A stretch of DNA of 64,000 bases from an uncultured delta proteobacterium (GTDB lineage: Bacteria > Desulfobacterota > Desulfomonilia > UBA1062). The position numbers were made by a program, and so were the translations under genes. The stretch lies in assembly GCA_963752595.1 (NCBI GenBank), contig CAVVYZ010000017.1:128001-192000 (forward strand). The letters run 5' to 3'. Shown piece after piece: positions 29,353 to 61,142 of the stretch. Numbering within the stretch: position 1 is the first letter of the stretch; the number at the start of each line of letters is the position of its first letter. Under the pieces are notes generated by a model. The model was not told where the DNA came from. It did no database searches and saw nothing but the letters and a program-made list of their open reading frames with translations.

Positions 29353-29353
29353 A

Positions 29354-31047: not shown

Positions 31048-31833
31048 TCATGATTGCTGTACATCCCGGGCGCACAGGGCTGCCCCGACCGCGGCGATGA
31101 GCTGGTGGTCTGCTGGTACCGATTTGACGACTTCCATCCCGAGGTGCTTCTCAAGGGCGCAGACTACCCCCCTGCTCTTGGCTACCCCCCCGGTGATCAG
31201 GATCGCAGGTATGGCGCCGAGTCTGTTGATCATGGTGGCGATCCCGCTGCCCAGGGAGTAGTTGATTCCCCCCACAATGCTCTTCACTTCGATGCCGTCG
31301 TTGATGTGGCTCACGATCTCGCTCTCGCAGAACACTGCGCACTGGGTGCTCATGTGCGCACATTCTTCGGGCGGTACCACCGTCTCCCCCATCTCTTCCA
31401 CCGTAAGTTCGAGGGCCTGTGCCGCAAGCTCCAGGAAGAAACCCGGAGCCGGATGCGCATTTGTCACTCGTGCGGTACTCGATAACCTTGCCTGCTTCAT
31501 TCAGCGATATGATGGTGGTCGAAAGCCCGCCGAGGTCCACCACTGTCCGTGCCCCGGCCAGGGCCCAGAAAGATCCTCTGGCAAGGCATTTGATGATCCC
31601 CTCGTTGACATGCTCGATCCTGATATATTTATCTCCCATGCCCGTACCGCCACGGATCCTTGATGTCATCAAGGGACAGCCCGGCCCTGGAGACGGCACT
31701 ATGTATGGATGCCTCAACAAGTCTCCTTCAAAGTTCCGTTGTTCCGGGTGATGTCGTGTGCGATCACGTTGCCGTTATCCATGACTACGGTCTTGGTGAA
31801 CATGGTACCCACATCGCATCCGAGTGCAAGCAT
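31048..31833 (-). pseudogene. Second activase subunit (BcrD/BadG-like) with three apparent frameshifts (about 31722, 31656, 31443)
   Basis: MLALGCDVGTMFTK from ATG 31833; GGTGMG..DLGG..DKCASGSG in one frame; FFLE..CAVFCESE..TGGVAK..AVGAAL in another; may be intact in vivo. Confidence 0.8.
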
Positions 31834-31871
31834 GGTTAGCAGTCTCCTTTGTGCGTCTTCGCGCTTCGGAC

Positions 31872-33272: not shown

Positions 33273-33276
33273 GGCT

Positions 33277-34410: not shown

Positions 34411-34448
34411 AGAAACCTCCTTTACTGGATTAGACAAAGGGAATATGC

Positions 34449-36130: not shown

Positions 36131-37991
36131 TCATTCTCCCAGTTCATCGATTACGAAATCCAGACCGAGCTCATGGAGCTTCTCCGGGGTGGGTATCCCG
36201 GTCTGCTTGTCCCAGCCCCTGTACCCGTAGTAGGCGTCCAGGAGCGGCTCAAGGTCAACGGTGAGCCCCGCGGCAGGACCGTCGGGCAGTGGATCTTCAA
36301 GCAGTCTCTTTGGCAGGGTGTCATCCTTCCTGCTCAGCCCCTCCCGCACATTGAACGCACGGGCCAGGTTGAAGATCCTCTCGCCAGCCTGCCTGAATCC
36401 TGCAACATCAAGATTCCAGCCCGTTGCGCCGTTGATCACCGGCACGATGTCTTCGGCCATGAGGGCCATGCCCATGAACTTGCAGGCGCCCAGTGCATCG
36501 AAAGTGGTCAGGGCGTCTTCCATATCCTTGACGACCTTGGCCTCCAGGGGATTCTCTTTCGTTACATCCTCGATGGTGTTCTCCTCCACAATGAGGAAGG
36601 GGATGTCCAGGAAGGTGGGACCCTGCACATAGGCCGTGATATGATCGCCGCCCCTGTTGGCGGTGACATACGCCAGGCCCGTGATCTTCGTGGCCCGGCA
36701 GTCATAGGCGGGCAGCTCCATGCCCTTGACGTTCATGGCAAACCGCTCGCTGCCGCCTCCCAGCTGCTTCGCCATATCCTTGTCCCCTCGGCCAGAAGGT
36801 CTCCGACACCTTCCCTGGCGGCTATCCGGCGTACCAGATCGACCATGGTGTCCGTGTCTCCGAACAGGATCTCTTTGCCGCCCGTGTTCTTCTTGTTCAG
36901 GATACCCTTCTCGTAGCACTCCATGGCAAAGGCGATGGTGCTGCCGGCCGAGACCGTGTCGAGCCCGTAGTCGTTGCACAGGATGTGTGCATAGGTAATG
37001 GCCTCGATGTCACTGATATCGCACATGGGGCCGAAGGTGCCGATGCTCTCATATTCCGGGCCTTCTCCCTTTATGGCGTATTTTCCGGTCTTGATGTCCA
37101 CAAGCCTGCCGCAGGCAATGGGGCAGGCATAGCACGCCTTCCTCCCCACCAGGATCTTCTCATTGAGGGACGGAGCGTTGATCTTGTCCGCATAGGTGCA
37201 GACACCGCTCTGCCAGTTGCGCGTGGGAAGGCCTCCCTTGACGTTGACGAGATCGAGCACCATGGAGGTGCCATACACCTCGAGCGTCATCTTCAGGAGG
37301 CTTTCGCTGATGAAGTCGGATGCCACCTTTGCCGCCGCCTCAAATGCATCCTGGTCGAAGATGGGGATCTTCAGCTCACCCTTAACCGCAACGGCCTTGA
37401 GCTTCTTGGAGCCCATGACGGCCCCGAACCCGCCCCGCCCCAGAGCCCGGTGGCGCTCATTCATGATCGTGGCATACTTGACTAGGTTTTCCCCGCCCGT
37501 TCCGATGCAGGCGATGCAGAAGCCCTTGCCGAGCTGCTGCTCAAGTATCGTCGTAGTGTCGAAGACGTTCTTCCCCCAGAGTCCGTCCGCATCCTTGAAG
37601 ACCGTCTTTCCATTTTCAATGATCAGATAGACCGGTTTTTCGGAAACCCCTTCGATAATGATACCGTCATACCCGCTCCTCTTGAGCTCCCTGCCCCACT
37701 TCCCTCCTGAACCCGACTGGCCCCAGAGGCCGGTAAGCGGAGACTTGGTGACGGCATTGTACTTCCCGGAGCTGGGAGAAAGTGTCCCGGTCAGAGGACC
37801 TGACATGAAGATCAGCTTATTGTCGGGTCCGAGCGGCTCTATCCCCGGCTTGAGCTCCTGGTACAGGTACTTGGTGGCAAGGCCGCACCCTCCCAGGAGA
37901 AGGGAGGCATCTCCCCTGGGAAGGGCCTCTTCCGATAACACTTCCTGTTCGTCAGATCGACTCTGAGAATCTTACCCATGAAACCGGACAT
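36131..37991 (-). CDS. Aldehyde:ferredoxin oxidoreductase (W/Mo-bisPT, AOR family), frameshifts near 37940 and 36780
   Basis: MSGFMGKILRVDLT, KSPLTG, GRGG.GAVMGSK.LKA, C.ACPIACG, EYE, GLDT, VKGME, RG.DH, C.F, YY..RGW...GIP. Confidence 0.92.
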
Positions 37992-38017
37992 GTCTCTTTC
38001 CCCCTTGCTGTATAGTG

Positions 38018-38380
38018 TCAGTCGGACCGCATGATGGTTACCATCTTCAAGAGCTTGAGGAGGTTTCCCCTCACTTTGATCCTGCCCTTGAGCACCCCTA
38101 CGATGGGGTTAAGCTCGCCACAGCTATATGCGGCCACGGTGTCGAAATCGGCCCACAGCGCAGCCGAGGGTTTCTCAACAGGGCCGTCCTTCAGCGAGAC
38201 GCTACCCTTTTCAAAGATGATGGTTATAGCCACGCCGGTGCTTTTTCTCGTCGCAACCAGGCTCCCGGAAATTTTGCAGAGCTTCTTCATTCGATCCGGG
38301 TTATTGATGTTCTGCTCCATGATGGGCAGCAGAGTGGCGCCCAGGCCGTTGAGTTCTCCGATGATATGGATCTCATCCAT
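38018..38380 (-). CDS. SCP2 sterol/lipid-carrier domain protein
   Basis: G.LNP...V.KG.IKV.GN...L.K C-terminal SCP2 signature. Confidence 0.75.
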   Translation of the reverse strand: MDEIHIIGELNGLGATLLPIMEQNINNPDRMKKLCKISGSLVATRKSTGVAITIIFEKGSVSLKDGPVEKPSAALWADFDTVAAYSCGELNPIVGVLKGRIKVRGNLLKLLKMVTIMRSD

Positions 38381-38407
38381 GTTCGGCTCCTGATGAACGG
38401 CAAGCCC

Positions 38408-38831
38408 TCACTCGCCGAGGTACTCATTCGGGAAGGAGCTGATGGAATTGGCTACGGCCCTGACGAACTTGGCATTGCGCATAATCTTGCTCATGTCGCC
38501 CTTAAGCTTCAGGGCACCGCGCACGACCATCTCGATGAAGTCCTTCTCGCCTTTTACGACCAGCTTGAAGTCGCCATAAGAGCCCGTTACATAGAAACCG
38601 GGGTCTAAACTGCCCGCGATTATCCATCATTTTGCTTTCAAGGCATTTGCCTTCCTTGGCATCGAGAAAGATATAATGGGTCTTTTCCAGGCCGCTTCCG
38701 GGGCTTACCTCGAATACCAGGCTTCCTTTGAATCCTACACCCCAGTTCTTGCCGGACTCGGCAACCGCAGGATCATTGTTCAATGCATCCTTCCATTTGT
38801 CACACCATTCCTGAGATGGATACAGAGCCAT
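38408..38831 (-). CDS. SCP2 sterol/lipid-carrier domain protein, frameshift near 38617
   Basis: YPS.EW......LN.D......G..W; second frame VTG.Y..FK.VV.G..D....V..G.LKLKGDM..IMR. Confidence 0.8.
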
Positions 38832-38881
38832 GCTACACCTCCTTAATGTCAGTCTGCAGGCACGCTTGCGGCGGGCCTTTT

Positions 38882-40141
38882 CTACAAAGTCTCCAGTTCG
38901 TACCAATACCTGGCGTTCTCCAGGTGCTTCAGTCCAAGACCGCCCATCCAGAGTCCGATCATCTTGCTGTCCCGCCAGTGCTTCTCCACATCGAACTCCC
39001 GGGAATAACCGTAGGATCCCATGTAGTCCATGGCCGTGCTGCATACCTTTTCAACGGCCTGGCTTGCGAATATAGCCAGCCCACGGCTTTTGTGCGCCAT
39101 CTTGTTACTCCATGGGTCTGTACCATAGATTTCAGGATGATCCACCTCGCGGCAGTACATATGAATCCAAGCCGATGTAGCCTCGATGGAGATAGCTATC
39201 TCTGACAGGGCTGCCGCGACCATGCTGTGTTCTTTGAGTGGCTTGCCCGCAATGATGCGCTCGGTGGTCCACCGCTTGATGATTTCATAGATATTCTTCA
39301 TCACGCCCAGGCACATGGATGCCGAGGCCATGTTTCCATAGGTGATCATCTCGGTGAAGTACTTCAGATCGTCTCCCGGCCCGTGAGCGCGATAACTCTT
39401 GGGCACGTGCACATCCTCGAACCATATATCGGTGTTCATATCGGCTGCCATGCCGGCCTTCTGGTAGGGACCTCCCATGGCTACACCGGGTGCATCGGCA
39501 GGCACATAGATGAATGCAAAGTCGTTCAGGTCAGTGGATCCCTTTTTTGTAGTGCACACCACGCCATAAAGATTTGCCACATCTCCCGAATTCGTGGGCC
39601 ATATCTTGTGGCCATTGATCACCCACTCGTCGCCAATCAGCTTGGCTGTGGTCTGGATGGTCTTGCCGCGCATCCTGTCCATATTCTCAATGTCTGCACC
39701 GCTCGACGGCTCGGTCATGGCATTGCAACCGACATAGAGCGTCTCGCCGCAGAATTTGGGTCCGAGAACCTTAATGAGCTCCATGTTGCGATGGGGCTTG
39801 AGTATGATCGGCAGCATGGGCCACAGTGAGCAGAGGACTGCGACCGTGAACCCCGAATCGATGCGCCCGCCCTCTTCGGCGAGGATGCAGACCAGCGTAC
39901 AGGTATCGGGTATGTCGGTCCCTCCCACTTCGGCAGGGAAGAACGCAGCGTTTATCCCTAGGTCAACCAGAACCTCCTTGAGGAGGGGCTTGACAAGCTT
40001 ATGGTCTCTCCAGTCCTCATCGATCTGCTGCCTGATGGGTATGTATTGGTCCTTGCCCCATTCCCGCAGCACCTTGCCGATATCGGTTACAAAGTCCGAG
40101 ACCCATTCCTTCGGCCTGATGAAATCATCTATATTCGCCAT
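38882..40141 (-). CDS. Acyl-CoA dehydrogenase
   Basis: P.E.GG, AMTEP.SGAD, W.ING.K.W.TN, K.G, GSYGY..E..VEK.WRD. Confidence 0.93.
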   Translation of the reverse strand: MANIDDFIRPKEWVSDFVTDIGKVLREWGKDQYIPIRQQIDEDWRDHKLVKPLLKEVLVDLGINAAFFPAEVGGTDIPDTCTLVCILAEEGGRIDSGFTVAVLCSLWPMLPIILKPHRNMELIKVLGPKFCGETLYVGCNAMTEPSSGADIENMDRMRGKTIQTTAKLIGDEWVINGHKIWPTNSGDVANLYGVVCTTKKGSTDLNDFAFIYVPADAPGVAMGGPYQKAGMAADMNTDIWFEDVHVPKSYRAHGPGDDLKYFTEMITYGNMASASMCLGVMKNIYEIIKRWTTERIIAGKPLKEHSMVAAALSEIAISIEATSAWIHMYCREVDHPEIYGTDPWSNKMAHKSRGLAIFASQAVEKVCSTAMDYMGSYGYSREFDVEKHWRDSKMIGLWMGGLGLKHLENARYWYELETL

Positions 40142-46219: not shown

Positions 46220-46846
46220 CTAATTCCTGTATCTCAATCTGTGTCTTGCCAGGCAGATTAAGCCTGATCCCAGAAGAAGCAGCGTGGAAGGCTCTGGAAC
46301 CGTGGAACTATTATACTTAATGTCATCCATGGTAAAAACACGACCTGGAAACTCGAAATCACTGCCGAGACGTTCCACCCAGATTGTCGAAGCCCCAGTG
46401 AAATTTGCCTCCAGGAAACTGGGAGCTTCTGAAAGTGTGGACCATGCACTCAGATTCCCCAGATTATCTCGCAGTCGTATCTGTGTTGCCTGGAACTCGG
46501 TAAACGCACCTTGTGCTAAAGCAAACCATGCTCCATTAAAGAAAACCGGTGCGGCAAAAGAGAAAGACAGATTGTTGGGGCCGAACGCGTTATAAACAAA
46601 ATTGGAGCCTGAATGAGACGTTGCATAAGAAGAATCATCATATACCGACCAGAACCCTGCTTCACCGGTACTCGTTTCATCGCTGGATGTTCCCCAGGTT
46701 AGACCTGCATAGCCGCTGCCGGTCAGATCAGTCCCTCCATTGAGAGTGTCGGGTATCAAATCATCAAAGGTGATCACGATAGCCTGGGCAGGGGATATAA
46801 CGAATACTGCGCAGAGCATGAACAAGAACATTGAAAATCTCTTCAT
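46220..46846 (-). CDS. PEP-CTERM sorting-domain protein
   Basis: Signal peptide AQA-, ITFDD start, MDD, VPEPSTLLLLGSGL plus basic tail. Confidence 0.93.
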   Translation of the reverse strand: MKRFSMFLFMLCAVFVISPAQAIVITFDDLIPDTLNGGTDLTGSGYAGLTWGTSSDETSTGEAGFWSVYDDSSYATSHSGSNFVYNAFGPNNLSFSFAAPVFFNGAWFALAQGAFTEFQATQIRLRDNLGNLSAWSTLSEAPSFLEANFTGASTIWVERLGSDFEFPGRVFTMDDIKYNSSTVPEPSTLLLLGSGLICLARHRLRYRN

Positions 46847-47184: not shown

Positions 47185-48198
47185 TCAGTGGTCAAGGATC
47201 AAATCACTGCACACCATCTGCCACGTGACTAGGGAGATGAAAAAGAAATTGAGGATAAACCCCAGCATACCTAACCTTCTCTGAATTATGGGTAATGAGT
47301 CCTGCAGGCTGGGCACCTTACGAAAAGGTTTCAGGATGCCGACGCCTGCCCCTGAGATAACACCACCAAGGAGCGTACAATAAAGCAGATAGCCTACATA
47401 GGAGTATTCACGCTGCAGGATGCAGAAAGGGCAGTGATGAGTAGGGAGCTCATAAAAATAGAGACAGATGAACGAGATGAGCGCGAGCACTGACACCAGG
47501 AAGAATCCTGTACTCGAGATCGAAAAGATACTTCCCAGCTTGTCGAAACCTCGATAAAAGAGAACGTCCAAACCCAGCGAGATGAATGCTGTTCCGTAGA
47601 AGGTTGCCCGGAGATACCCTACCGGAAGACTTATTATCATGGAAAAAGGACCTCTGCCGTCTGCCTGACCGGCACTGAAGAGGCTTTCACAGCAGGATGT
47701 AATGACATCGGCCTTCAAACTGAGGAAATATGCCCCCTGAAAGGCTGTCTCAGCGAGCATAAGCGGGGCAAGAAAGAGGAGGAACACATATTTTTTCCTG
47801 ATGAGGGGATGATCTCTGGCCCGGCTGTCAACATGGTTCATGACAAGCCAGAGGCCTGCCAGGATGAGGGTCAGGCCTTTTATCCCAAGCGTAAGGTACC
47901 CATACTCGCCGGCATTCAGGCTTCCTGCTGCGCACATTGCCCCGATGAACAGGCTGTGCAGGTTATCGGCAGCATAGATGAACAGAAAGAAAGACAGGAT
48001 CTCGAAGTCGAAGGCATATGCCATCAGTGTGGAAACAAGGTAGGTCCTTTTTTCCAGCGCGAGCTGTCTTTCGCTCCCGCTGTGCAGGTCCCAATGCCAC
48101 ACTATCTGCAGGCCGAACCATGATGCGATCATGATCATCAGGCTTATCAGGAATGAGCCCGAGAGAAGGGCTATGACGACAGGATTAAGGATCATCAT
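47185..48198 (-). CDS. Polytopic membrane protein with Cys/His motifs
   Basis: Many hydrophobic helices; [20 protein letters not shown]. Confidence 0.75.
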
Positions 48199-48872
48199 CC
48201 ATGCTCCGTAATGAAGCCGTCTCTTATCTCTATGACGTGGTCCACGATTTTTGAGCCATAAACAATGGGGTCGTGGCTTGCAAAGAGGACTATCTTCCCA
48301 CTGTGTTTAAGCTTCTCCATGGTATCCATGAAATCAATGGACAGCTTCGTGTCCAGGTGTGCGGTCGGCTCGTCGGCAATCACGACATCCGGATCATTGA
48401 TCAGTGCTCTGGCAATGGCTACCCTCTGGGCTTCGCCTCCGGACAGCCATTCCACCTTTGCATCTGCCCTGTGGACAATATTCAGCATTACAAAGAGGCG
48501 AAGCGCTCTTTTCTTGAGCGCACGATATCCCTTCCCGGTCGGATAACCGGGAAGCATAACATTCTCCAGGGCCGTAATCCCCCGGATGAGATTCAGCTGC
48601 TGGAAGATGAAACCGAAGGTTTTTCTCCTGATCTCCGTCAGGAACCGCTCGGGAAGGCTGGATATTTCTTCCCCCCTGATGTAGATCCGACCCGCTGTAG
48701 GCTTTGCCATACAGCCGATCAGAGAAAGGAGGGTCGTCTTCCCTGACCCGCTGGGTCCCCTGAATACCATGATACGGCTCCCGTCTATCTCCAGGTTTAC
48801 ATCTCGTAATGCAATGAATTCATTGGGCCTGCCCTTGTTGAACACTTTGGTGACTTTCTCAAGATCTATCAT
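48195..48872 (-). CDS. ABC transporter ATP-binding protein (LolD/MacB-like)
   Basis: [38 protein letters not shown]. Confidence 0.93.
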
Positions 48873-48895
48873 GGCGGCCTTTAAAGAGATCCCTG

Positions 48896-50029
48896 TCAGA
48901 AGCGCATTGCCGAGTCGGGCTCTATGGTTGATGCAAGCCATGACGGGATGATGGTCGCAACCGTGTAGGGTATGACCGTAAGGAAGAGAAGCACTGCTAT
49001 CTCATAGAGATCGATCGCGGGGACAAGCCTGAAATGAGGATACACGACCGCCCACCCTTTCAGAACCGGCTCGAAGAGGGTCGAAGAGGCAAAGAAAACA
49101 TGGATATAGGCAAGGATAATACCTGCAAGGAATGACGACAGAGAGATAATAAGGCCTTCCCATGACTTCAGAGCGATCACCTCGCGGGTATCCCACCCGA
49201 TTGCTTTGAGGATGCCGATCTCCCTTCTCTCTTCCATGCTCAGACTGGTGGCCTTGTCCCAGGCAAAGATCAGGAAGGCCAGGATCGCCCCGGTGAAGAT
49301 GACCAGCAGGATGCCGCTGCGCCATGCGAATGCGGCTTCATACGTCCTCAGGATTTCATCCCGGAGGATCGGCCTCGTGTCAGGGAATAGCCTCAGAATC
49401 TTATGTGCAACCGCGATCCTCTCACGTGCATTCCTGACCTTCATGGTGACATCGGTATAATACGTCTCCGGAATGCCGAAGAGGCCCCTGAAGTCATTCT
49501 CCGACAGTTCGATGAGATCAGCCGACACCAGTTCCGACTCGCTGGAAAACGTATCTACTACCTCAAAGCTCTGGTAGGACCCGTCATGTCCCCGGAGAGC
49601 TATCATATCACCTTCCCCTGCCCCGAGTGCCCTTGCTACACCCTGGCCCATTACAACATTCCCTTCTTCCCGGTCTGTTCTATCGGTTGCAAGAATGGTA
49701 TAGTTGGCGGACAGGGATGCATCGGAATAGTAGGCCCACAAGCGGCCCTGCACATCGGATACACCGGTAATTTTCAGCAGTTCATCTATATAACGGGCAG
49801 GGATCAAAGCCTGCCTCCCGGCAACGAGCCGCTGAACGACAATGTCCGGGCTTCCTTCAAGCACGGCATTCGCCTCTTTCTTGATGGCCTGGGTGAAAAA
49901 GACGATCGAGGCCAGGATAAAAACGATAAGGGTATACACCGCCGTGAGCGCAAGGTTCTTATTCGATCGCCGCATCAGCGACAACAGTGCAAAATCGATT
50001 AAGTATCTTTGCCTTTCAATCCAGATCAT
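48896..50029 (-). CDS. ABC transporter permease (FtsX/LolE/MacB type)
   Basis: One N-terminal TM, large periplasmic domain, [13 protein letters not shown], three C-terminal TMs, P.W.A....P. Confidence 0.9.
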
Positions 50030-50324
50030 ATCGGGTCAGGTGAGGCGGCGGCAACATAAGCGCACCGGAAGGAAAATAGTCAAGGGACATCGGGCTGTCC
50101 TGGAAAGAAGAATGGATATCAGCCATTGACGGGTTCCTTGTGTACCGGGCATCGGTGAAGAGGCAGATATCAGTGAGTCTGTAAACTTCGACCAGATGTC
50201 TTTCATCTTTCAGCATTGCTGCCCCGGCTTTTGAACAGATATGGGCGTGAAGGAAAAGGATTGCCAGAATCGTGAGGTTCAAGACAAGGTAGAGCATGAA
50301 AGCATTCGATTTTCTTTGCCGCAT
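50016..50324 (-). CDS. Small membrane-anchored hypothetical protein
   Basis: N-terminal TM; LTD.CL...ARY.R..S......FQD.P...D.FP; tightly packed in the operon. Confidence 0.7.
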   Translation of the reverse strand: MRQRKSNAFMLYLVLNLTILAILFLHAHICSKAGAAMLKDERHLVEVYRLTDICLFTDARYTRNPSMADIHSSFQDSPMSLDYFPSGALMLPPPHLTRYDLD

Positions 50325-50849
50325 TCAGTCGAGACCTCTGATGATTGAAGCCGTGATATCATTGTACCCGAGTGTGGCTTTCCCATGGTGATCGGTCATG
50401 AATTCCCTTGCCTCGGACTCTTTCTCGAAGGGTATGAGTTCTCTACCCATGGGGCCATAGACATCGCTGCCCATGACATAGAAGGCCTTTCTCGCATCAA
50501 TGGGGGTGAGCCGGTAGTACTCGGTCACGTAAAGAGAGGCTATGTCGTCCGGGTTTTTTCCCGGGCTGTACTTGGAAAGGGCATGAAGATACTTGAACAT
50601 ATCCTTTGCTCCGTCAAAGAAGCCGATGCTTGAATCTCTGAAGATTACCCGGGCAAGAAAATCCGGATATTTAAAGATAAACATGCCGCAGACAGGGCAC
50701 TTGTCAGCCTTCCCGGGTTTCCGGAACTCAGAGGTTCCTGCCTGTGCGAGGGAAACCGCCATAAGCATCATGAATCCGATGCACACGGTTCTTTTCATGA
50801 TTATACCCATCCGGATTTTCATCCTTCCCGTGTAAGACCTGTTACCCAC
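50325..50849 (-). CDS. nosL: NosL-family copper chaperone (start uncertain, possibly 50798)
   Basis: CPVCGM, FFDG.KDM, A.YV.GS...GPMG..L.PF.....A..F...H.G. Confidence 0.85.
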   Translation of the reverse strand: MGNRSYTGRMKIRMGIIMKRTVCIGFMMLMAVSLAQAGTSEFRKPGKADKCPVCGMFIFKYPDFLARVIFRDSSIGFFDGAKDMFKYLHALSKYSPGKNPDDIASLYVTEYYRLTPIDARKAFYVMGSDVYGPMGRELIPFEKESEAREFMTDHHGKATLGYNDITASIIRGLD

Positions 50850-50859
50850 ATTGGCCTTC

Positions 50860-51378
50860 CTACATGTTCATTTTCCCCATCTTTTTCATCTTCCTTTTTT
50901 CTCGGATCATCTTTGTGTCCGGATACATGTCATCATACGAGCACTTGATCGCTTCCTCAAAGCCCTGAAGCGCCCCGCCGTTTACCTTGATAAAATCCTC
51001 CGCATCCGCCTTGTTCTCAAAGGCCCACTTTGCTCTCTTGGTCATTACTCCGGGCTTGCTTCCTCCGATAATCCAATAAGCCTTCTCCGTATCAATCAGC
51101 TTCTTAGTCTTGTGGTCCCCCACCTCGATGGATTTGGGCGTTTTGTCCAGGCTCAATGCCAGCTCTACTGCGGCACAGTGCAGGCTGCATGTGCCTGCAG
51201 AAGTTCCGTCGTCATAGGTTATGAGCACCCGGCTGTGCGAGAACAGAGTTCGATCCATGCCGCAGTACTTGCAGGCCTTGTACATGCTCAGATCATCATC
51301 CTGAGCATTGCAGAGGCCCGCAGGCAAGCCGAAAGCAACCATTGCCATCAAGAAAACCATGCTTTTTATCGTTCCCAT
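50860..51378 (-). CDS. nosL: NosL-family copper chaperone, second paralog
   Basis: Signal peptide, CKYCGM, CSLHC, A.W..G....GVM, AF.....AE.F....GG; Met/Lys-rich tail. Confidence 0.85.
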   Translation of the reverse strand: MGTIKSMVFLMAMVAFGLPAGLCNAQDDDLSMYKACKYCGMDRTLFSHSRVLITYDDGTSAGTCSLHCAAVELALSLDKTPKSIEVGDHKTKKLIDTEKAYWIIGGSKPGVMTKRAKWAFENKADAEDFIKVNGGALQGFEEAIKCSYDDMYPDTKMIREKRKMKKMGKMNM

Positions 51379-51483: not shown

Positions 51484-54400
51484 TTACATGACCATCCGCT
51501 GATTCTTCATCTGAGCCCTTCCCCACAGCAGGAATATGGCGGGATAAATAGCCAGCTCAAGGATCGTCGAAGTCACTACCCCGCCGATCATGGGGGCAGC
51601 TATGCGCTTCATGACCTCCGAGCCCATGCCGGTGCTGAACATAATGGGCACCAGACCCGCAAGTATAGTGGTGACGGTCATTACCTTGGGCCTTAGTCTC
51701 CTGACAGCGCCGTGCTTGATCGCCTCTCTGAGGTCAGTATCTGTCTTCAGCCTTCCCTGATCGCGCCACTGCCGGAAAGCCAGATCCAGGTAGAGGAGCA
51801 TGATGACACCCGTCTCTGCATCAAGGCCTGCCAGGGCAATGATCCCCACCCATACGGCTGTACTCATGTTGTAGTTGAGCAGATGGATGAGCCAGAAAGA
51901 GCCCACTAGAGAGAAAGGTACAGCCAGAAACACGATGGCTGTTTTTGTTAATGAGCGGGTATTGAGGTAGATGATGAAAAAGATAATGCACAGCGTGAAT
52001 GGGATAACGACCATTAACCGGCTCTTGGCCTTTTCCATGTATTGGTATTCGCCCCCCCACTCCAGACGATATCCGTCAGGGATCTTGATGCTTGCAATAT
52101 TCTTGTTGACAGCATCGATGTACGAACCTGTGTCGATGCCGGCAAAGTGGATATACACGGAGGCGCTCAGCATGCCCTGCTCGCTTTTGATGAGCGATGG
52201 ACCGTTGGTGATGCGGATATCGGCAAGCTCGCGGATCGGGACTTGGGCAATGGTGCCGATGCTGGGGCCGGAACCGGAGAAATATACAGCAGGGGCACTA
52301 AGCTCAACCGGAACAAGCACCCTGCCGACAGAATCAAGTTCGCCCCGGAATTCCCGTTCGTAGCGGACATTGACAGGATAACGCGCCCTGCCTTCGATGG
52401 TCGTCGTCAGGTTCACGCCGCCGATTGAGGCCTGGATGGCTGAGTTCACATCGTCGACCGTGAGGTTGTACCGTGCCGCCTCATCCCTCTTCACTGTTAT
52501 GTCGAGGTAGTATCCGGTATTGACCTTCTCGGCATATACGGTGACCGTGCCCGGGACCTGCTTGATCAGCTTCTCCAGATCGGTCCCGATACGCTCTATG
52601 GTCGAGAGGTCGGGTCCCAGGATCTTGATCCCCAGAGGTGTCCGGATGCCTGTCGAGAGCATGTCGATGCGTGCCTTGATCGGCGTGGTGAAGGCATTGG
52701 CCAGGCCGGGTATCTGCAATCTCTCGTGCATCTCTTCGACGAGCTTCTGGACCGTCATGCCCGGCCGCCATTCTGACTCGTCCTTCAGGTTTATGACTGT
52801 TTCGAACATCTCCAGAGGGGCCGGATCTGTGGCTGTTTCAGCCCGTCCTGCCTTGCCGAATACCTGTGCCACCTCAGGGATGGCTGCAAGTGTTCCATCT
52901 TGTACCTTGAGCAGATTCGAAACCTCCGAAATGGACACGCCGGGTGCCGTGACCGGCATGTAGAAGATCGAGCCCTCGAAAAGTGGGGGCATGAATTCGG
53001 ACCCTAGTTTCATCACAGGGTACAGGGTAATTGCGATGACGATCAATGCAGCAATGAAAACCTTGTTCGGGTGTTTAAGGCTGAAGCTTACGACCGGCTC
53101 GTAGATCCGTTGGAGCGATCTGTTCAGGGGATTATCATGCTCTGGTCTTAACCGCCCCCTGATGAGGATTGTCATGAGTGCAGGCGTGAGCGTCACTGCA
53201 AGCAGCGATGCCGTGAGCATGGCAAAAGTTTTGGCAAATGCCAGGGGTCTGAAGAGCCGCCCGGCTTGATCCTGCAGGGCAAAAACCGGCAGGAAGGCCA
53301 CGGTAATGACCAGAAGGGCGAAAAAGAGGGAAGGACCCACTTCTGTTATTGCAGAGACGAGCACCTCTGCCCGACTTTCTCTCCGCCCACCCGCCTCCCA
53401 TTCCTCAAGCTTCTTGTGGGCGTTTTCCACCATGATGATTCCTGCATCCACCATGACCCCGATGGTGATCGCAATGCCGCTCATGCTCATGATATTGGAG
53501 GTGACGCCAAAGAAGGAGAGAAACAGGAAGGAAAGGATAATGGCACCCGGTAGTGTGAGGAGTATCACCAGGGCGCTGGGCAGGTGCATGAGGAATATCA
53601 TGCAGACGATGCTCACTGCGATGATGAGCTTGGTTATCTCGTCGCGGAGCGTGCGGATGGATTTCATGATGAGGTCCGACCGATCGTAGGTGGTGATGAT
53701 CTCGACACCGTCCGGCAGGCTGGGCGCGATATCGCGCCCGATCTTCTCCTTCACCCGCTCCAGCACCTTGAGGACGTTCTCGCCGTACCTGACGACTACG
53801 ATCCCGCCTACGACCTCTCCCTTACCGTCTAGATCGGCAATCCCCCTGCGGATCTCGGGCCCGATCTGCACTCTCGCAATGTCGCGGAGGTATATGGGGG
53901 CTCCCCTGCCGTCAGTCCCCAGGGGAACGATCTCCAGATCCCTTGCCTCACGGATGTAGCCCATGCCCCGAACGATGTATTCCGCACCGGAGAACTCTAT
54001 GACCCGCCCCTCTATGTCGTTATTGCTCTTCCTTATGGTTTCGAAGACCCTGGTAATGGGGATTCCGTAGGCCAGGAGGCGGTTCGGATCGATGTTCACC
54101 TGGTACTGCTTGATGAAGCCGCCGATGGTCGCCACCTGGGCAACACCGGGCACGCTTTCCAGCGACAACTTCAGGTTGTAGTCCTGGAGGGAACGCAGTT
54201 CAGACAGGTCCAGAACTCCTTTCCTGTCTTTGATTGCATAGCAGAAGCCCCATCCCACGCTCGATGCATCCGGCCCCAGGAGGGGATTCACCTCTGCCGG
54301 GATTTTACCCTTCACCCCCTGCAGGTACTCAAGGACCCGGCTCCTGGCCCAGTAAATGTCTGTCCCGTCCTCGAAAATGGCATAGATGAAGGAGCTGCCA

Positions 54401-54666
54401 AGAAAGGAGTATCCCCTTACTGCCTGCACCTTAGGCATGGCCAGGAGCGTCGAGCTGATTGGATAGGTGATCTGATCCTCCACCAAGTGTGGGCTTCGGC
54501 CGGTCCATTCGGTGTAAACGATGACCTGTGTATCGCTCAGGTCAGGTAGTGCATCGAGGGCTATCCTGTTCATGGCCCAGATGCCCCAAACAATGACGAG
54601 TGAAATAAACAGCAGGACAGCGACCCGGTTCTTTACACTGAATTCTATGATATGCCTGACCATCAC
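51484..54666 (-). CDS. cusA: CusA/CzcA heavy-metal RND permease
   Basis: DALPDLSDTQV, DIYWARSRVLEYL, GSEFMPPL.EG...YMP, DPAPLEMFET, AETG..M, R.RPK.MT. Confidence 0.95.
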   Translation of the reverse strand: MMVRHIIEFSVKNRVAVLLFISLVIVWGIWAMNRIALDALPDLSDTQVIVYTEWTGRSPHLVEDQITYPISSTLLAMPKVQAVRGYSFLGSSFIYAIFEDGTDIYWARSRVLEYLQGVKGKIPAEVNPLLGPDASSVGWGFCYAIKDRKGVLDLSELRSLQDYNLKLSLESVPGVAQVATIGGFIKQYQVNIDPNRLLAYGIPITRVFETIRKSNNDIEGRVIEFSGAEYIVRGMGYIREARDLEIVPLGTDGRGAPIYLRDIARVQIGPEIRRGIADLDGKGEVVGGIVVVRYGENVLKVLERVKEKIGRDIAPSLPDGVEIITTYDRSDLIMKSIRTLRDEITKLIIAVSIVCMIFLMHLPSALVILLTLPGAIILSFLFLSFFGVTSNIMSMSGIAITIGVMVDAGIIMVENAHKKLEEWEAGGRRESRAEVLVSAITEVGPSLFFALLVITVAFLPVFALQDQAGRLFRPLAFAKTFAMLTASLLAVTLTPALMTILIRGRLRPEHDNPLNRSLQRIYEPVVSFSLKHPNKVFIAALIVIAITLYPVMKLGSEFMPPLFEGSIFYMPVTAPGVSISEVSNLLKVQDGTLAAIPEVAQVFGKAGRAETATDPAPLEMFETVINLKDESEWRPGMTVQKLVEEMHERLQIPGLANAFTTPIKARIDMLSTGIRTPLGIKILGPDLSTIERIGTDLEKLIKQVPGTVTVYAEKVNTGYYLDITVKRDEAARYNLTVDDVNSAIQASIGGVNLTTTIEGRARYPVNVRYEREFRGELDSVGRVLVPVELSAPAVYFSGSGPSIGTIAQVPIRELADIRITNGPSLIKSEQGMLSASVYIHFAGIDTGSYIDAVNKNIASIKIPDGYRLEWGGEYQYMEKAKSRLMVVIPFTLCIIFFIIYLNTRSLTKTAIVFLAVPFSLVGSFWLIHLLNYNMSTAVWVGIIALAGLDAETGVIMLLYLDLAFRQWRDQGRLKTDTDLREAIKHGAVRRLRPKVMTVTTILAGLVPIMFSTGMGSEVMKRIAAPMIGGVVTSTILELAIYPAIFLLWGRAQMKNQRMVM

Positions 54667-55910
54667 TCGCTGCAGCCTTTCAGCTTCGCCTCTGAATCGA
54701 CGAGAAAGACAGGCCTGGCAACGATCCGATCGCCCTGCTGAAGGCCTCCTAAAACTTCCACCAAGGTATCGGTCCTTATGCCCTGCCTGATACGGCGGGC
54801 CTGGAAGAAACCGTCGCCTACATCGACATACACAATCTGCCTTATGCCTGTGTCAAAGACTGCTTCTCTCGGTATGGCGAGCTTTTCACCAAGATCAAGG
54901 ACCATCTCCACATTGGCAAACATCTGGGGCTTCAGGATTTTATCAGGGTTCGGGACGATGAACCTTACCTTGACAGTCCTGGTGTTCCCCGAAAGAGCCG
55001 GATACACGAAGTCGACCTTTACAGAGAAGGCCTTTTCAGGATAGTTGCTCAAACTGATACTTGCTTCCTGGCCCTCCTGAATGGAAACAAGCTCGTATTC
55101 ATACACATCAGCCAGAACCCAGACAGTAGAGAGGTCCACGATATCGAACAGCTTATCCCCGGGGTTGACACGGCTGCCCCTGAACGCGGGCTTCTCGAAT
55201 ATATAGCCGCTGACAGGGCTTCTGACCATGATAGTCCGATATGCATCCCCTTTCTTCTCGAGCCTCTCGATATCCTTGTCCGTGAATCCCCAAAGCTTGA
55301 ACTTCTGCCTGGCCACTTCGACGAGGAGCTCGGGGTCGTAGGTGACAAACCGGCCGTTTGTTCCGTAACGGTCTCCCCACTCGAATTCTATTGTCCGTTG
55401 AAAACGGGGAACCTGATTCTTCCATTTCATCAGATTGAGGTATTCGAGCTGGACAGATGCAGCCTCTGGGCTGTAGATCTCCGCCAGGGGCTCGCCGCGC
55501 CTGACATATTTACCCGAATAGTCGGCATACAGTTTTTCCACCCACCCCTCGTATTTCATGTTTATAGTCGTCAGCTTTCTCTCATCGAATTCGATCCGTC
55601 CTACCGTGCGGATGGTCTTGACCATCCGGCTCCGTGAGACCGCAACGGTCTTGAGCCCGATTAGCTTCTGTCTGTCCGGAAGGATATCGAATGCCGGTGT
55701 CTGCCGAGTGTTAACTTGGTCAGGAACATGAGTCGTTCCTGCCGTATCCAAAGAAACATGATCAGAGGATGCCGGGTTTTCTTTTGAATATATGCGAGGA
55801 GAGGATAAATGCCGGGATGACGAAACATCGCTTTGATGAACACCGAAAATGAGCGCAGCCATAAGAGCGGCAGCAGTGAGTAGAAATACTGCAATAAGAC
55901 CCTTCCGCAT
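54663..55910 (-). CDS. cusB: CusB-type RND periplasmic adaptor
   Basis: G.I..DE, GW.EKL, G.PL..IYSPE, DLS.VW..A.VYE, TRT..VR, L.P.MF, FL.DSE. Confidence 0.92.
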   Translation of the reverse strand: MRKGLIAVFLLTAAALMAALIFGVHQSDVSSSRHLSSPRIYSKENPASSDHVSLDTAGTTHVPDQVNTRQTPAFDILPDRQKLIGLKTVAVSRSRMVKTIRTVGRIEFDERKLTTINMKYEGWVEKLYADYSGKYVRRGEPLAEIYSPEAASVQLEYLNLMKWKNQVPRFQRTIEFEWGDRYGTNGRFVTYDPELLVEVARQKFKLWGFTDKDIERLEKKGDAYRTIMVRSPVSGYIFEKPAFRGSRVNPGDKLFDIVDLSTVWVLADVYEYELVSIQEGQEASISLSNYPEKAFSVKVDFVYPALSGNTRTVKVRFIVPNPDKILKPQMFANVEMVLDLGEKLAIPREAVFDTGIRQIVYVDVGDGFFQARRIRQGIRTDTLVEVLGGLQQGDRIVARPVFLVDSEAKLKGCSE

Positions 55911-55964: not shown

Positions 55965-56486
55965 TCAGCGTACATCTATCGGAAAGACGACCCGACAAAG
56001 GTCCGCCTGATTGTGTACGATAATCACAATGTTCCAGGGTCCTGTCATGATGAGATCCATTGTTGCCGTATACTCGTCACCTGTCATGTAAGCCGGAATT
56101 GTATAGTTCATCGGGGGCATGCCCGGCATGGGGGGCATGAAATAGTTGATTGTAACAACAGCCCCTCTCACATAATTCCCATGGGCATCTTTGATCCGGA
56201 CCCGGGTTACGTTTTTACCTATGATCGGCGGGTTCCTGTTTATGAAAGCTTCAACCGTATACCCGCCTGCTCTTCGCCTGACCTGGTAATCCCTGGCATC
56301 GGATGCCCCCCGCCCCAAAATCACCATGACCAGAAACACAACGAGACCCGTACGGAGGCCCCACAAGCTACGTTTGGCTTTTATCGCCGGAAAGGGGCGC
56401 TGTGCCCGATAACAATCAGGGGGTCCTACCGAAGGGAAGCAACGGCTCCTCCCGATTAAACCGGCTGATATGTGCGGAACGTTCAT
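55965..56486 (-). CDS. FixH/YtkA-like periplasmic protein with Met-rich motif (true start probably downstream)
   Basis: PP..G.N, MPPMPGMPPM, G.Y......M.G.W. Confidence 0.75.
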   Translation of the reverse strand: MNVPHISAGLIGRSRCFPSVGPPDCYRAQRPFPAIKAKRSLWGLRTGLVVFLVMVILGRGASDARDYQVRRRAGGYTVEAFINRNPPIIGKNVTRVRIKDAHGNYVRGAVVTINYFMPPMPGMPPMNYTIPAYMTGDEYTATMDLIMTGPWNIVIIVHNQADLCRVVFPIDVR

Positions 56487-56513: not shown

Positions 56514-56891
56514 TCAGGGTACCTGTTTGAGCACCTCGACCCTATCCGCTTTCCGCATCGAGTCGACCCTGGCTTCAATCACATCCCCGATCTTGAGATC
56601 TTTCCCGCTTATCTCACGGTCATTCCGGATGATCTTGGATCCATTCCGGATGTATACTATCTGCGATTTGCCGGCTGGATTCATGATGACCAGTGATCCA
56701 TCCCGTTCGATGAACGTGATCGTTCCCTCCACCTTTGCTGCTTCTTTTCCTGTTGCTGTTCCAGTGCCCGTCGCCTTCATTACTTCCTGTGCCGCTGTCG
56801 TGCTGCCGTCTGAATCAGCAGAAAGAGATGCCGCGCTGATAATGAACACCAGGATAAACAGGGACATGAGAGTCCTCGACCCGAAACCCAT
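56514..56891 (-). CDS. Secreted OB-fold-like hypothetical protein
   Basis: Signal peptide; V.G.I..I......I...DLK.GD.I; strong RBS. Confidence 0.7.
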   Translation of the reverse strand: MGFGSRTLMSLFILVFIISAASLSADSDGSTTAAQEVMKATGTGTATGKEAAKVEGTITFIERDGSLVIMNPAGKSQIVYIRNGSKIIRNDREISGKDLKIGDVIEARVDSMRKADRVEVLKQVP

Positions 56892-56973: not shown

Positions 56974-58838
56974 CTATGGACAGCCGTCCGGCCCTGCACA
57001 GGCGCAGTTGTTTGTTGCCGGGTCGTTCACGCAGTACGGCCTCATCATCTCATGATCTTCATGAGAGAGGATATGGCAGTGCCAGACATACTCACCTGCA
57101 ATGTCGAACTTGGCAATGATACGGGTTACCGAACCCGGATTCATTACAATGGTATCCTTCCATCCTTTTTCGTTGTCAGGTGGCTGAACGGGGCTGCCGA
57201 CAAGCTGAATATTCGTCAGCGATCCATTACCGGCCTGGTCGGCAGTGAATTCCTGCCGGTCCAGGACCTGGAACTGGACGAGATGCAAGTGGATGGGATG
57301 GGCATCCGGGGTCGTGTTATATATCTCCCAGATTTCAGTGGAGCCAAGTTCGGGATTCTCTGTGATCGGTGACCTGTATTGAAGCGCACCGTCAGCTACT
57401 GTTCCCAATAGAGGCTCCAGACGGCCATATCCGTTCGTTGCCTCGGCCAGGATAAGCTGTCGCGGGGGTAATGATGTTGATAGTGGTGGTATGGGCGTAG
57501 TGCGCAGCTGAGTTGGTACCGTGCCCGGCACCACGGGGGTTGAAGCAACCCGGAAGGCCATGATCCGGCCCCCGTCCTGGGGTCAACCGGGGCCCCGGTC
57601 GGGAAAGGTACATTAGCATCGTTGGTGAGGATCAGCGTATTGCCGGCAAAGGTCGAGAAATCAACCAGTACATCCATCCTCTCGCCCGGTCCCATGAGCA
57701 GGCGCTGCGGCGATGCAATCGTCACCGGTGCATTGAGCAGGCCTCCATCAGTGCCTATCTGGACGAAGGCAGGGCCCGGTTGATTGGTGTTCTTGACCAA
57801 GAGAGCTGTATTATAGAAACGAGAGTCTGATCCATTCAAGAGATGCAGGCGGTACTGCCTGGGCTTCACATCGAGGACCGGCCATGCCTTTCCGTTGACG
57901 AGGATGAAGTCACCGAAAAACTCGGGCTGGGCGCTTGGAGCGCCACCGGGGAGAAGAGACGGCTGGGTCGGATAATACAACTGCCCGTTCGGAGTGAACA
58001 TCCGGTCCTGAATGACGAGAAGGACTTCATACGGATACTTGGGAAGATTGAGGGCAGCCTCCTTAGCATCACGAATCAGGCAGAATCCGGCAAGTCCGGC
58101 ATACACGTTCAAACGCGTGAGTCCCAGGGCATGATCGTGATACCAGATAGTCGCAGCCTCCTGGTCCATCGGGTAATTGTAGACCTCGTTGAAAAGCCTT
58201 CCCTTCTGCGCATATCCAGGGGTAAACCATGCATCCGGCAGGCCGTCACTGAGCGATTCGGTATGGCCGCCATGGAGGTGCATGCATATGGGCACAGGTC
58301 CCAGATAGGGGCCGGGCACCCTGTTTGGAGGGTCATTAAACGGGTCTGCCCAGTCCAGTGTCGAATCCACAGGAAGGAGATGCGGTAACGGATTTCCAAG
58401 GGTATCGACGAGGTTGTTCTTCCATCTGACTGTGATCGGCTTGGACGGATTTGCCCCTTTATCGATCAGAAAGGTACGGCCTGGATAGGTCGGTGACTGC
58501 GTCTTCGAACCATAACCCCAGACAGTCGTCTGCATGGGCGCCATGGTCTTGAGATTGACGAGTCCGAGGTTCTGCTTGAACTGGTATGCCCCGATCTCAT
58601 AATGAGACCCGCCGGGTGTTGTGGGCTGCCATATAAAGCCGGGACTGAGCGGGTTGGGGCACTGGTTCAGGAACTTCGGCTGAGCCACTGCATCGAGTAC
58701 GCATACCCCATTAGGGTCAAGCACCGATCCCGTCGGGCACACAGGTTGCGCACTGACTATGAGAGGCAGGGAAAAGGCCATGGCCGGCAGAAATAAAAGC
58801 CATATAAGGCTCTTCAGCATATTATTTCGCAGCATCAT
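56974..58838 (-). CDS. Multicopper oxidase (CotA/bilirubin oxidase-like), frameshift near 57570
   Basis: All four Cu motifs present: HLHG, WYHDH, HPIHLH, HCHILSHEDHEMM; N-terminal signal peptide. Confidence 0.93.
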
Positions 58839-59211: not shown

Positions 59212-60342
59212 TTGCTGAAAATCCTCTCTTCATTGAAGTTCACGGTAATGCTTTTCTTCAGTATTGCCCTGCTCTGCCTGGTCGGGACCATCTTCCCCCA
59301 GGAAGGTACCGTGATGCCTTTCGGGCACGGGTGGGTCTCCGGGATACTATCTCTACTCAGTCCCTATGACATCTTTCATTCGATCTGGTTCATGACCCTC
59401 GGATTTCTGCTCTGTGTCAATCTCGTGCTGTGCATGAGGCGGAGGATATATTTGCGCAGGAGAAGTCTCCTGATGCTGCTCCTGCACGGCAGCATTCTCG
59501 TGATCATTGGTGGATTTGCCCTCGGCGCCTTCGGCCTGGACGGTTTTATGGATATTCCGGAGGGAACAGCCGTATCCGGGGTGGTTTTGAAGGGAGGAGC
59601 CTTCAAAGACCTCGGTTTCTCTGTCCGGTGCGATCGGTTCACGGTGGATTATCACGAAAACGGCATGCCGAAGGAATTCGTGTCCGGTCTGACCTTCATG
59701 AAAAACGGCCAGGCGGTCGGTCAGGCACAGGTGAGCGTCAACCACCCGGCCCGTTTCTCCTGCTTCGGCTTCTATCAGGAGAGTTACCGGCAGGTCTTGT
59801 CCGCAACCTTGACTGTCTCCGAAGATGAGACAAAGATGACGGTCAAGGCATCCGAGGGCGATATCATCCCTCTTTCACGCGCAGGCACCCAGGCCAGAGT
59901 AGTAAAAGTCTGGGATGACCTCATGGAGGCAGGGCCTGCTGTGAAGCTCTTGATCGAAGATTCCTCAGGGGTGCGGTACCTGTGGGTGTTCAAAAATATA
60001 GACTTGATCAGGAGCCAGGCATCTGATCTCTTTGAAAGGGCACCGGAGCTCAACCCTTCGGCAGTCAGGCCCTACACGTTCTCGGTTGAAGAGACGGCTG
60101 CCTCGTACATAACAGGCATCAGGGTCAAGCGGGACCCGGGTACCCCTGTGGCAGCATTTGGCGGGGCGGTATTTCTCGTCAGTCTGATGCTTGTCTCCTT
60201 TACTCCGCGTACCAGGAAGGGGACAGGACCGGATTCCTCACGCGGGGATGCTGCCGAGACCGGCATACACCCGGGCCAGGATCAGGAAGGCCCTGCAGAG
60301 GATCTCGCGAAGGCCGGCAGAGGCAGAGAGGGCGAGGATTGA
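59212..60342 (+). CDS. resB: Cytochrome c biogenesis protein ResB (system II)
   Basis: LSSLK, GTIFPQ, S.WF, LH.SI, VNHP, YQ.SY, DPG. Confidence 0.88.
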   Translation: MLKILSSLKFTVMLFFSIALLCLVGTIFPQEGTVMPFGHGWVSGILSLLSPYDIFHSIWFMTLGFLLCVNLVLCMRRRIYLRRRSLLMLLLHGSILVIIGGFALGAFGLDGFMDIPEGTAVSGVVLKGGAFKDLGFSVRCDRFTVDYHENGMPKEFVSGLTFMKNGQAVGQAQVSVNHPARFSCFGFYQESYRQVLSATLTVSEDETKMTVKASEGDIIPLSRAGTQARVVKVWDDLMEAGPAVKLLIEDSSGVRYLWVFKNIDLIRSQASDLFERAPELNPSAVRPYTFSVEETAASYITGIRVKRDPGTPVAAFGGAVFLVSLMLVSFTPRTRKGTGPDSSRGDAAETGIHPGQDQEGPAEDLAKAGRGREGED

Positions 60343-61142
60343 GAAGCGGGATCATCATCGGCATGGTGACCTTCATCTACCTCGGGTCGTTCTCCCTGTC
60401 GCTGGTAAGCCTGATATCCGGGAAGGAAGCCCTGGCATGCCTTGCCTTCTTCGGCGCCATGGGCGGGTTTCTGATGCATACGGCAGGAATTCTCCTGCGG
60501 TGGCATGAATCCTATTCTCTGGGAATCGGCCATGTACCACTGGCAAATTTTTATGAGTCCCTTGTATTCTTTTCCTGGGCAATTGTCCTGATTTCATTCC
60601 TCGGCATCAAAGGCAGGATAAGAGATCCGATGCCGGCCTTTGTCATGCCTGCGGCTGCCCTGATGCTCGGCTATGCGTCGTTTTCGCCCGGCATAGAGAA
60701 CAGCATCCAGCCCCTCATCCCTGCGCTGAAGAGCAATTGGCTCGCCATCCACGTCATCACCTGTTTTCTTGGCTATGCATGCTTATCAATGGCCACGGTC
60801 TTTGGATTGATTATGTTGAGAGGGAGCAGCGTGTCATCCGGTGAGAAAACCTCGGGTCTGATCTTCTACCGCTGCGTGATCATCGGGTTCATATTCTTCG
60901 CCGTGGGCATCCTGACCGGATCTGTGTGGGCTCAGGTCGCATGGGGAAGGTACTGGGGATGGGACCCGAAGGAGACGTGGGCGCTCATTACCTGGCTCGT
61001 CTATGCAGCCGTGCTCCATGAGAGGATAAGGGGCGGCGGGATGACAAGGAGGGTCGCCGTGCTCGCACTGATAGGATTTTTAAGCATTCTGTTCACGTAT
61101 TTCGGGGTAAACTATCTCCCGGGGCTGCATGGTTATTTCTGA
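60339..61142 (+). CDS. ccsA: Cytochrome c biogenesis protein CcsA/ResC
   Basis: P.L.S.WL.IHV, WWD motif GSVWAQVAWGRYWGWDPKETW, GVN....LH. Confidence 0.95.
   Translation: MRSGIIIGMVTFIYLGSFSLSLVSLISGKEALACLAFFGAMGGFLMHTAGILLRWHESYSLGIGHVPLANFYESLVFFSWAIVLISFLGIKGRIRDPMPAFVMPAAALMLGYASFSPGIENSIQPLIPALKSNWLAIHVITCFLGYACLSMATVFGLIMLRGSSVSSGEKTSGLIFYRCVIIGFIFFAVGILTGSVWAQVAWGRYWGWDPKETWALITWLVYAAVLHERIRGGGMTRRVAVLALIGFLSILFTYFGVNYLPGLHGYF

Follow-up and report, generated by a model that had tools for sequence, protein, structure and literature searches.

What do two NosL copper chaperones do at a locus that has no gene for nitrous-oxide reductase? We asked this of six adjoining minus-strand genes at positions 47185..51378 of a 64,000-nucleotide stretch of DNA (the window) from an uncultured delta proteobacterium of the phylum Desulfobacterota (assembly GCA_963752595.1, contig CAVVYZ010000017.1, positions 128,001 to 192,000). 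A sequence-only reading had described them as a module of two divergent NosL proteins, a small anchored protein, an FtsX/LolE-type permease, its ATPase, and a Cys/His membrane protein, and all six open reading frames (ORFs) and their motifs were confirmed. We found that this cassette is real and widespread, apparently undescribed, and very likely tied to copper. That it handles copper in some way is highly probable. By analogy with the NosDFY-NosL system, it may be an ATP-driven station at the inner membrane that hands off periplasmic Cu(I) to the copper enzymes and pumps of its host, a reading to which we give an even chance.

The genes are arranged in the order NosL1, NosL2, small protein, permease, ATPase, and the membrane protein, denoted MEM, with junction gaps of 61, 0, -14, 23, and -4 nt. 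Promoter and terminator scans stayed at chance level (13 versus 11.3 and 11 versus 10.8). A Pfam scan of 54 window ORFs gave no match to NosZ, NosD, or NosY, in agreement with the sequence-only reading, and no match to NosZ, NosD, or COX1 was found in the genome, which is 84% complete; this scope applies to all genome-wide negatives. NosL1 and NosL2 are the only NosL matches in the genome.

A cassette conserved across several phyla

MEM was identified in 46 of the 301 genomes sampled from the window's phylum, which is largely anaerobic; a 47th genome, with a 60-residue match containing three stops, was dropped. It was also found in 7 out of 401 genomes of Pseudomonadota (the phylum of Methylobacter, the centre included) and in 11 out of 121 genomes of the order of Methylobacter. 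Given this last, low figure, we abandoned the idea that methane oxidation depends on MEM. In total, 5,602 relatives of MEM were found among 7,999 scored candidates, and the family comprises 1,525 clusters at 50% identity, with none in plasmids and none in viral contigs. Named carriers, taken from the best 80 of 586, belong to Syntrophaceae, Geobacteraceae, Nitrospirota, Methylococcales, Lentisphaerae, and Methylomirabilis.

We then analyzed the neighbourhoods of MEM. From 134 loci, 4 duplicates, 2 second pieces, and 3 distant loci (by tblastn threshold) were removed, leaving 125, of which 100 have at least 4 kb upstream and 78 are well flanked. Among the 100 loci, the permease was present in 94, NosL in 88, and the small protein in 87. 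In 115 out of 122 loci, the gene immediately upstream of MEM is that of the ATPase. Conservation of the cassette as a unit extends over several phyla. It was found to be split in four genomes of one family, where MEM lies beside CusBA and oxidases and where NosL2, the small protein, the permease, and the ATPase stand together on another contig. All four retain a permease orthologue (50-54%) and NosLs elsewhere; being relatives, the four genomes represent one or two events.

A literature search found no description of the cassette, in line with the earlier statement that no functional study of it was known; gene-cluster figures, for example in supplements, could show the genes unnamed. In the portions of the NosL literature that we drew on, NosL is treated as a factor for NosZ (PMC6769254, PMC7558416, PMC13477213, bioRxiv 2025.06.28.662143).

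Candidate metal ligands in the NosL proteins and MEM

NosL1 (50860..51378, minus strand) and NosL2 (50325..50798, minus strand) both exceed the Pfam NosL cut-off of 24 bits, with scores of 41.2 and 102.3 bits, respectively. The NosL2 ORF spans 50325-50849 (174 aa), with a likely start at the ATG at 50798; its residue numbers follow the 174-aa ORF. NosL1 is of a four-Cys type, with the motifs CKYCGM and CSLHC and candidate ligands at C36, C39, M41, C64, C68, and M112. NosL2 is of an Asp/Asp type, with the motif CPVCGM and candidate ligands at C51, C54, M56, D79, D83, and M134. Among homologues, the four cysteines of NosL1 were kept in 62/62 and its two methionines in 61/62. C51, C54, M56, and M134 of NosL2 were kept in 84/84, and its Asp/Asp pair in 77/84 and 76/84.

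In SdNosL from Shewanella, C62, M64, and M145 are reported as Cu(I) ligands and C59, C62, C88, and D92 as Zn ligands (PMC8457098). The solved NosL structures 7osf and 7og7 align to NosL2, and both window proteins retain the three Cu(I) ligands (C54, M56, and M134 in NosL2; C39, M41, and M112 in NosL1). Both also keep the first Zn-ligand cysteine. At the last two Zn positions, NosL1 has a Cys/Cys pair and NosL2 an Asp/Asp pair; these differ from the canonical C88/D92 pair but would be plausible Zn ligands. The CSLHC motif, earlier taken for an addition to one NosL, instead maps onto the position of this known pair; the mapping was made by motif position, and phmmer aligned only the C-terminal part of NosL1. 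Canonical NosL has a lipoprotein anchor at a lipobox cysteine, whereas the module NosLs mostly lack a lipobox: a simple pattern found one in 3/84 NosL2 homologues, in 0/62 NosL1 homologues, and in neither window protein, and the N-terminus of NosL1 is signal-peptide-like without one. This suggests that the module NosLs are likely soluble.

Module NosLs were also found fused to an outer-membrane barrel, fused to cytochrome c, or in tandem. The outer-membrane barrel fused to NosL is of the Phenol_MetA_deg type and is a candidate channel for copper entry; this fusion occurs in Methylobacter (locus L120:11997-13532) and in a nos cluster (L066:9330-10685). NosL-cytochrome c fusions, together with a nos-cluster NosL fused to a cupredoxin-like domain, were seen at L066:7989-8741, L067:7512-8354, L067:5954-6685, and L067:10083-10853. 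One clade II nos cluster holds up to five NosL genes.

MEM (47185..48198, minus strand) is a 337-aa, eight-helix membrane protein of a new family, with the motifs GAMC (86-89), ITSCC (166-170), and HHCPFC (254-259). It matched no Pfam, NCBIfam, or PDB family, and its profile matched no PDB sequence. The AlphaFold2 model (predicted local distance difference test, pLDDT, 92.6) has eight long helices in two four-helix bundles. Counts of Lys and Arg put loops 1, 3, 5, and 7 inside, and the K/R-rich loops alternate with the motif loops. All three motif loops are predicted to lie on the periplasmic face, where they may together form one site. M88, C89, C169, C170, and C256 were kept in 269/269 homologues and in 118-120 of 120 full-length representatives at 50% identity, while the remaining Cys, His, and Met residues, the start Met aside, were kept in at most 42/120; the conservation of the motifs is therefore not due to chance. 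Loss of these motifs among homologues, named beforehand as an outcome that would count against a copper role, was not seen. The earlier picture of the motifs holds for their core but not for every residue: H254 was kept in 113/120 and H255 in only 77/120, and C259 is Cys in 85/120 and Asp in 32/120. This last exchange is of the kind expected of a metal ligand. No conserved Cys, Met, or His was found within the helices or on the cytoplasmic side.

Searches with MEM and with its C-half by Foldseek and VIA gave no clear relative. The best structural matches were generic four-helix bundles, with Z 13.2 for the whole model (126 residues aligned, root-mean-square deviation 2.5) and Z 10.8 for the C-half (120, 2.9), and no internal repeat between the halves was detected (hhalign probability 0.3%). 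DsbB, VKOR, CopD, and CcmC were absent among the structure matches listed for MEM and its C-half, which does not imply their exclusion. Like DsbB and VKOR, MEM contains four-helix bundles, here of a generic kind, and a CxxC-like motif predicted to be periplasmic. This raises the alternative that MEM is a disulfide relay like DsbB, VKOR, or CcdA, which would maintain the cysteines of copper proteins in a reduced or oxidised state and hold no metal itself. The CPFC stretch resembles the CxxC stretch of DsbB (NCBIfam DsbB E=0.25, residues 237-286), VKOR matches were obtained in 2/43 rows (best E=0.0075), and TlpA is a neighbour in 31/125 loci, with DsbD or DsbD_2 in some. However, the likeness to DsbB is confined to that stretch: the MEM profile aligned with six DsbB sequences over 21 columns at a probability of 8.4%. 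An invariant CxxC and Arg were not found, as Asp replaces the second Cys in 32 of the 120 representatives and the position of the conserved DsbB Arg is Arg in only 18/120. In addition, the MEM-bearing Pseudomonadota tested retain their own DsbB (5/5), and the invariant Met of MEM fits Cu(I). The motifs of DsbD and CcdA do not all lie on one face, unlike the predicted arrangement in MEM. We consider a thiol-redox role improbable.

A type VII ABC pair and its small partner

The permease (48896..50029, minus strand) has the FtsX/LolC/MacB topology, scoring 29.4 bits against Pfam FtsX (cut-off 25.5) with a weak match to MacB_PCD. The ATPase (48195..48872, minus strand) is of the LolD/FtsE/MacB type; its ORF reaches 48941, with a likely start at 48872. 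Its best NCBIfam matches were LolD (172.9 bits) and FtsE (170.1 bits), all below cut-off, and its catalytic motifs are intact (Walker A, LSGGE, DEPT, and SHD). An FtsX-type permease with a large periplasmic domain, paired with an intact LolD/FtsE-type ATPase, identifies a type VII ABC (ATP-binding cassette) system, which bears out the earlier assignment to the FtsX/LolE type. The pair is distinct from the genome's own LolC/E: the permease scored 40 bits on lolCE, compared with 414.8 for the true LolC/E on another contig, and falls below the TIGR02212 cut-off (41 versus 362 bits), as the ATPase does for TIGR02211 (173 versus 308). In a tree of 42 rows, built by a quick method and with long branches, the module permeases form a separate group. 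The cassette has the gene pair and the families of its permease and ATPase in common with LolCDE/LolDF, MacB, FtsEX, YtrF, and HrtBA, but it lies below every curated cut-off, forms its own subfamily, has metal-chaperone partners, and includes no MacA-type adaptor among its six genes. In the portions of a review of type VII ABC systems that we drew on, copper is not named as a cargo (PMC5985334). In a Methylomirabilis locus (L155:8181-12238), two diverged module-type permeases flank MEM, which suggests a heterodimer that arose after duplication.

The small protein (50016..50324, minus strand; 102 aa) lies outside known families. It gave no consistent Pfam match and only unnamed clusters in the Atlas. 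It has an N-terminal hydrophobic segment and, in an 88-row alignment, a conserved LTDLCLFTEARYTRH...FQDHP..EHFPSGS segment; a His is kept at one position in 81/88 rows (Tyr in the window), and Cys is often present. Its gene overlaps the permease start by 14 nt, which suggests that it may be an accessory subunit of the permease. When inter-protein covariation was computed over 58-89 locus-paired rows, no pair stood clearly above its two shuffles; this analysis was underpowered and is uninformative either way.

A binding protein-permease-ATPase gene layout, together with the NosL-barrel fusions, could also be that of a copper importer, in which the ABC pair with MEM as a conduit takes copper into the cytoplasm and the NosLs serve as binding proteins. 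Type VII permeases are described as having no path through the membrane, and these systems as turning ATP into periplasmic work and motion rather than cross-membrane transport (PMC5985334). Within its helices and on the cytoplasmic side, MEM offers no conserved Cys, Met, or His for a conduit, and we consider import very improbable.

Copper gene neighbourhoods and the proposed hand-off

Some NosL homologues have been reported outside canonical nos clusters (PMC8457098). A nos_propeller match was found in 12 of the 301 genomes of the window's phylum, 5 among the 46 with MEM and 7 among the 255 without. Strict dependence of the cassette on nosZ is refuted, since 41 out of 46 MEM genomes have no such match; this supports the independence from nosZ that had been claimed for this locus. 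Four of the five nos-positive MEM genomes have strong matches, and in three the cassette lies inside a complete clade II nos cluster (L066, L067, and L070) where nosD and nosY are also present. The fifth carries a clade III L-NosZ on a different contig. That a MacB-type ABC reported near clade III nosZ is the same cassette was not supported: the five module profiles were unmatched in the stretches fetched around five L-nosZ-like genes, the type strains being outside the sample. Clade III (lactonase-type) NosZ-like genes were found in the window's phylum at L204-L208 (5/5 tested match, 3 over cut-off), several of them near cytochromes and an ABC-2-type transporter.

The neighbours of the cassette are mostly copper genes. 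A core copper gene (CusA, oxidase, SCO, nos, or P1B) was found in 55 of the 78 well-flanked loci, compared with 3 of 188 other 20-kb tiles of the window genome. CusA was detected in 30/46 MEM genomes versus 77/255 others, Cu-oxidase_3 in 22/46 versus 49/255, and at least one of the three markers CusA, Cu-oxidase_3, and nos in 38/46 versus 103/255. All these enrichments overstate the association, since these very loci supplied the neighbour references and the genomes share ancestry. The variety of copper partners is a stronger sign: the neighbours vary by lineage among CusBA, multicopper oxidase, SCO (14/125 loci), copper P1B-ATPase, and clade II nos. In Pseudomonadota, the cassette was found with TlpA (4/6 sampled loci), DsbD_2, and a P1B ATPase (3/6), and all three of the P1B ATPases tested exceed the copper TIGR01511 cut-off. 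At four loci (L057:15420-19307, L050, L056, and L059), MEM adjoins CusA/CzcA-family pumps of unusual length (about 1,295 aa).

In the window, genes for a multicopper oxidase, a YtkA-like protein, CusB, and a true CusA precede the cassette and share its strand. The CusA-type Cu(I)/Ag(I) resistance-nodulation-division pump (51484..54666, minus strand) ends 105 nt upstream of NosL1 and scores 1036 bits on TIGR00914, over the cut-off; it reaches 1021 bits to solved CusA versus 468 to ZneA. The CusB-type periplasmic adaptor (54663..55910, minus strand) matches Pfam HlyD_D23 at 238 bits. The YtkA-like protein (55965..56486, minus strand; Pfam YtkA 47.8 bits) has a Met-rich motif, and YtkA occurs near MEM in 19/78 loci. 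The multicopper oxidase named in the sequence-only reading (56974..58838, minus strand) does carry Cu-oxidase_3 and _2 domains, but in this assembly it reads as two ORFs with a frameshift near 57568. This break most likely arose in assembly, because the oxidase is a single frame in relatives L081 and L082 (about 70-84% identity), near-identical contigs obtained in two runs of a single study have one extra base in the C-run at 57568, and other window genes are split as well. An AMP-binding ligase (34449-36130) and an aldehyde:ferredoxin oxidoreductase (36131-37941) each span two frames in the same way, and the assembly probably holds scattered indel errors.

Several other genes surround this operon. 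A 125-aa secreted-looking protein with a weak S1/OB match (56514-56891, minus strand) lies between the oxidase and YtkA, as it does in L081 and L082. A ResB/CcsB cytochrome c biogenesis pair (59212-61142, plus strand) and the copper operon are transcribed divergently, with a gap of 373 nt between them, and a PEP-CTERM protein (46220-46846, minus strand), not recurrent as a neighbour, lies immediately downstream of the cassette. A second CusA-CusB-YtkA set is present elsewhere in the genome (G000:C9, about 20000-40000), and its CusA match contains stops.

The sequence-only reading had proposed the upstream oxidase or CusBA as the client. The copper context is strong, but only 22 of the 46 MEM genomes have Cu-oxidase_3 and 30 have a close CusA, and no single client explains all carriers. 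The cassette looks like a general module rather than one dedicated to its two local neighbours, since in other lineages it is found beside SCO, a copper P1B-ATPase, or a full nos cluster. The cassette likely serves several copper enzymes and pumps, beyond nitrous-oxide reductase alone. Delivery is favoured over detoxification because of the nos, SCO, and barrel contexts. Under detoxification, the NosLs would scavenge periplasmic Cu(I) as CusF does, and the ABC pair and MEM would strip it and feed CusBA or the oxidase. This would account for CusA being the commonest neighbour (38/78 loci), for MEM staying with CusBA where the cassette splits, for the lack of a CusF-like gene among the ORFs of the window's copper operon, and for a genome with no COX1 or NosZ match to supply. 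It accounts less well for cassettes in complete nos clusters, beside SCO, or with a NosL-barrel fusion, all of which point to supply, and 16 of the 46 MEM genomes have no close CusA by the query used. We therefore consider a detoxification arm rather unlikely.

Several observations weigh against copper hand-off. No core copper gene was present in the fetched DNA of 23 of the 78 well-flanked loci, and 8 of the 46 MEM genomes lack all three markers, although two of these have an oxidase or CusA, or SCO, beside the cassette. MEM is not required by its putative partners, being absent in 49/71 genomes with an oxidase and in 77/107 with CusA. NosL was missing nearby in 12 out of 100 loci, and a genome with a distant MEM (G199; 95% complete) has no permease orthologue or NosL match. 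The permease has no conserved periplasmic Cys/Met cluster, and its link to copper comes through its neighbours only. The loci without a copper neighbour would also fit another cargo (Zn, Ag, Hg, heme, or a lipid-linked compound) or lipoprotein or envelope trafficking, with the copper genes as fellow travellers on metal islands. In keeping with this, the closest solved permeases are LolC, YtrF, and LolF (E about 3e-8), the Cys/Asp exchanges in NosL2 and MEM fit Zn, and NosL is reported to share its fold with MerB (PMC8457098). However, a true LolC/E is present elsewhere in the genome, the module NosLs mostly lack a lipobox, the three Cu-specific NosL ligands are kept, and the neighbours are specifically of copper type (CusA over ZneA, TIGR01511, SCO, and NosZ). 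We regard another cargo as quite improbable.

In the copper hand-off that we favour, Cu(I) would enter the periplasm through a P1B-1 ATPase, an outer-membrane channel, or from the medium, and would be carried by the soluble pair NosL1 and NosL2, both of which would contain a structural Zn site. The thiol face of MEM would hold Cu(I), as a membrane dock or a buffer. A permease dimer, with the small protein as accessory, would spend ATP on forcing NosL to dock and release, with no membrane crossing, as in NosDFY. Copper would pass mainly to apo-cuproproteins, here the multicopper oxidase, and CusBA would remove the excess. NosDFY has been described as cycling NosL on and off with ATP, swapping NosL for its client (PMC13685413), and the same logic built from different parts would be the simplest reading of the cassette.

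The two systems share NosL chaperones with the same Cu ligands (NosL PDB 7og7, 7osf-7osj, 7znq), an ABC ATPase likely used for mechanical hand-off and, in some genomes, a place in the same cluster as clade II nosZ. The cassette itself differs in having no NosD or NosY, a type VII (FtsX) rather than an ABC-2 permease, two NosL types, MEM, and the small protein, and most carriers lack nosZ. On the best reading, it may work like NosDFY-NosL but is no member of it. Heme delivery by CcmABCD-CcmE uses an ATPase, a permease, a one-helix subunit, a cofactor-holding membrane protein, and a periplasmic chaperone, with ATP spent on release. Its parts list and logic are similar to those of the cassette, but no sequence or fold match was found, the ABC type is different, and the cargo is likely different. 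The CusCFBA and CcoI/SenC/PCuAC pathways are frequent neighbours and likely draw on the same periplasmic Cu(I) pool, but none has an ABC motor or MEM.

The copper supply of periplasmic cuproenzymes is known for a few aerobes and for NosZ. More tentatively, the cassette may be an independently built, client-independent counterpart of NosDFY in which a type VII ABC moves a metal: Cu(I) held by MEM would be exchanged, with ATP as the driver, with soluble NosLs of two kinds, and in this way anaerobes and microaerobes could supply oxidases, N2O reductase, and other copper enzymes with the metal in sulfidic settings poor in copper. If true, NosL would have a general role that goes beyond N2O reductase, type VII ABC motors would gain a metal cargo, and the cassette would establish two new protein families. 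Its small size allows expression of the whole cassette, which makes a direct test possible, and it may be relevant to N2O and methane sinks under copper limitation.

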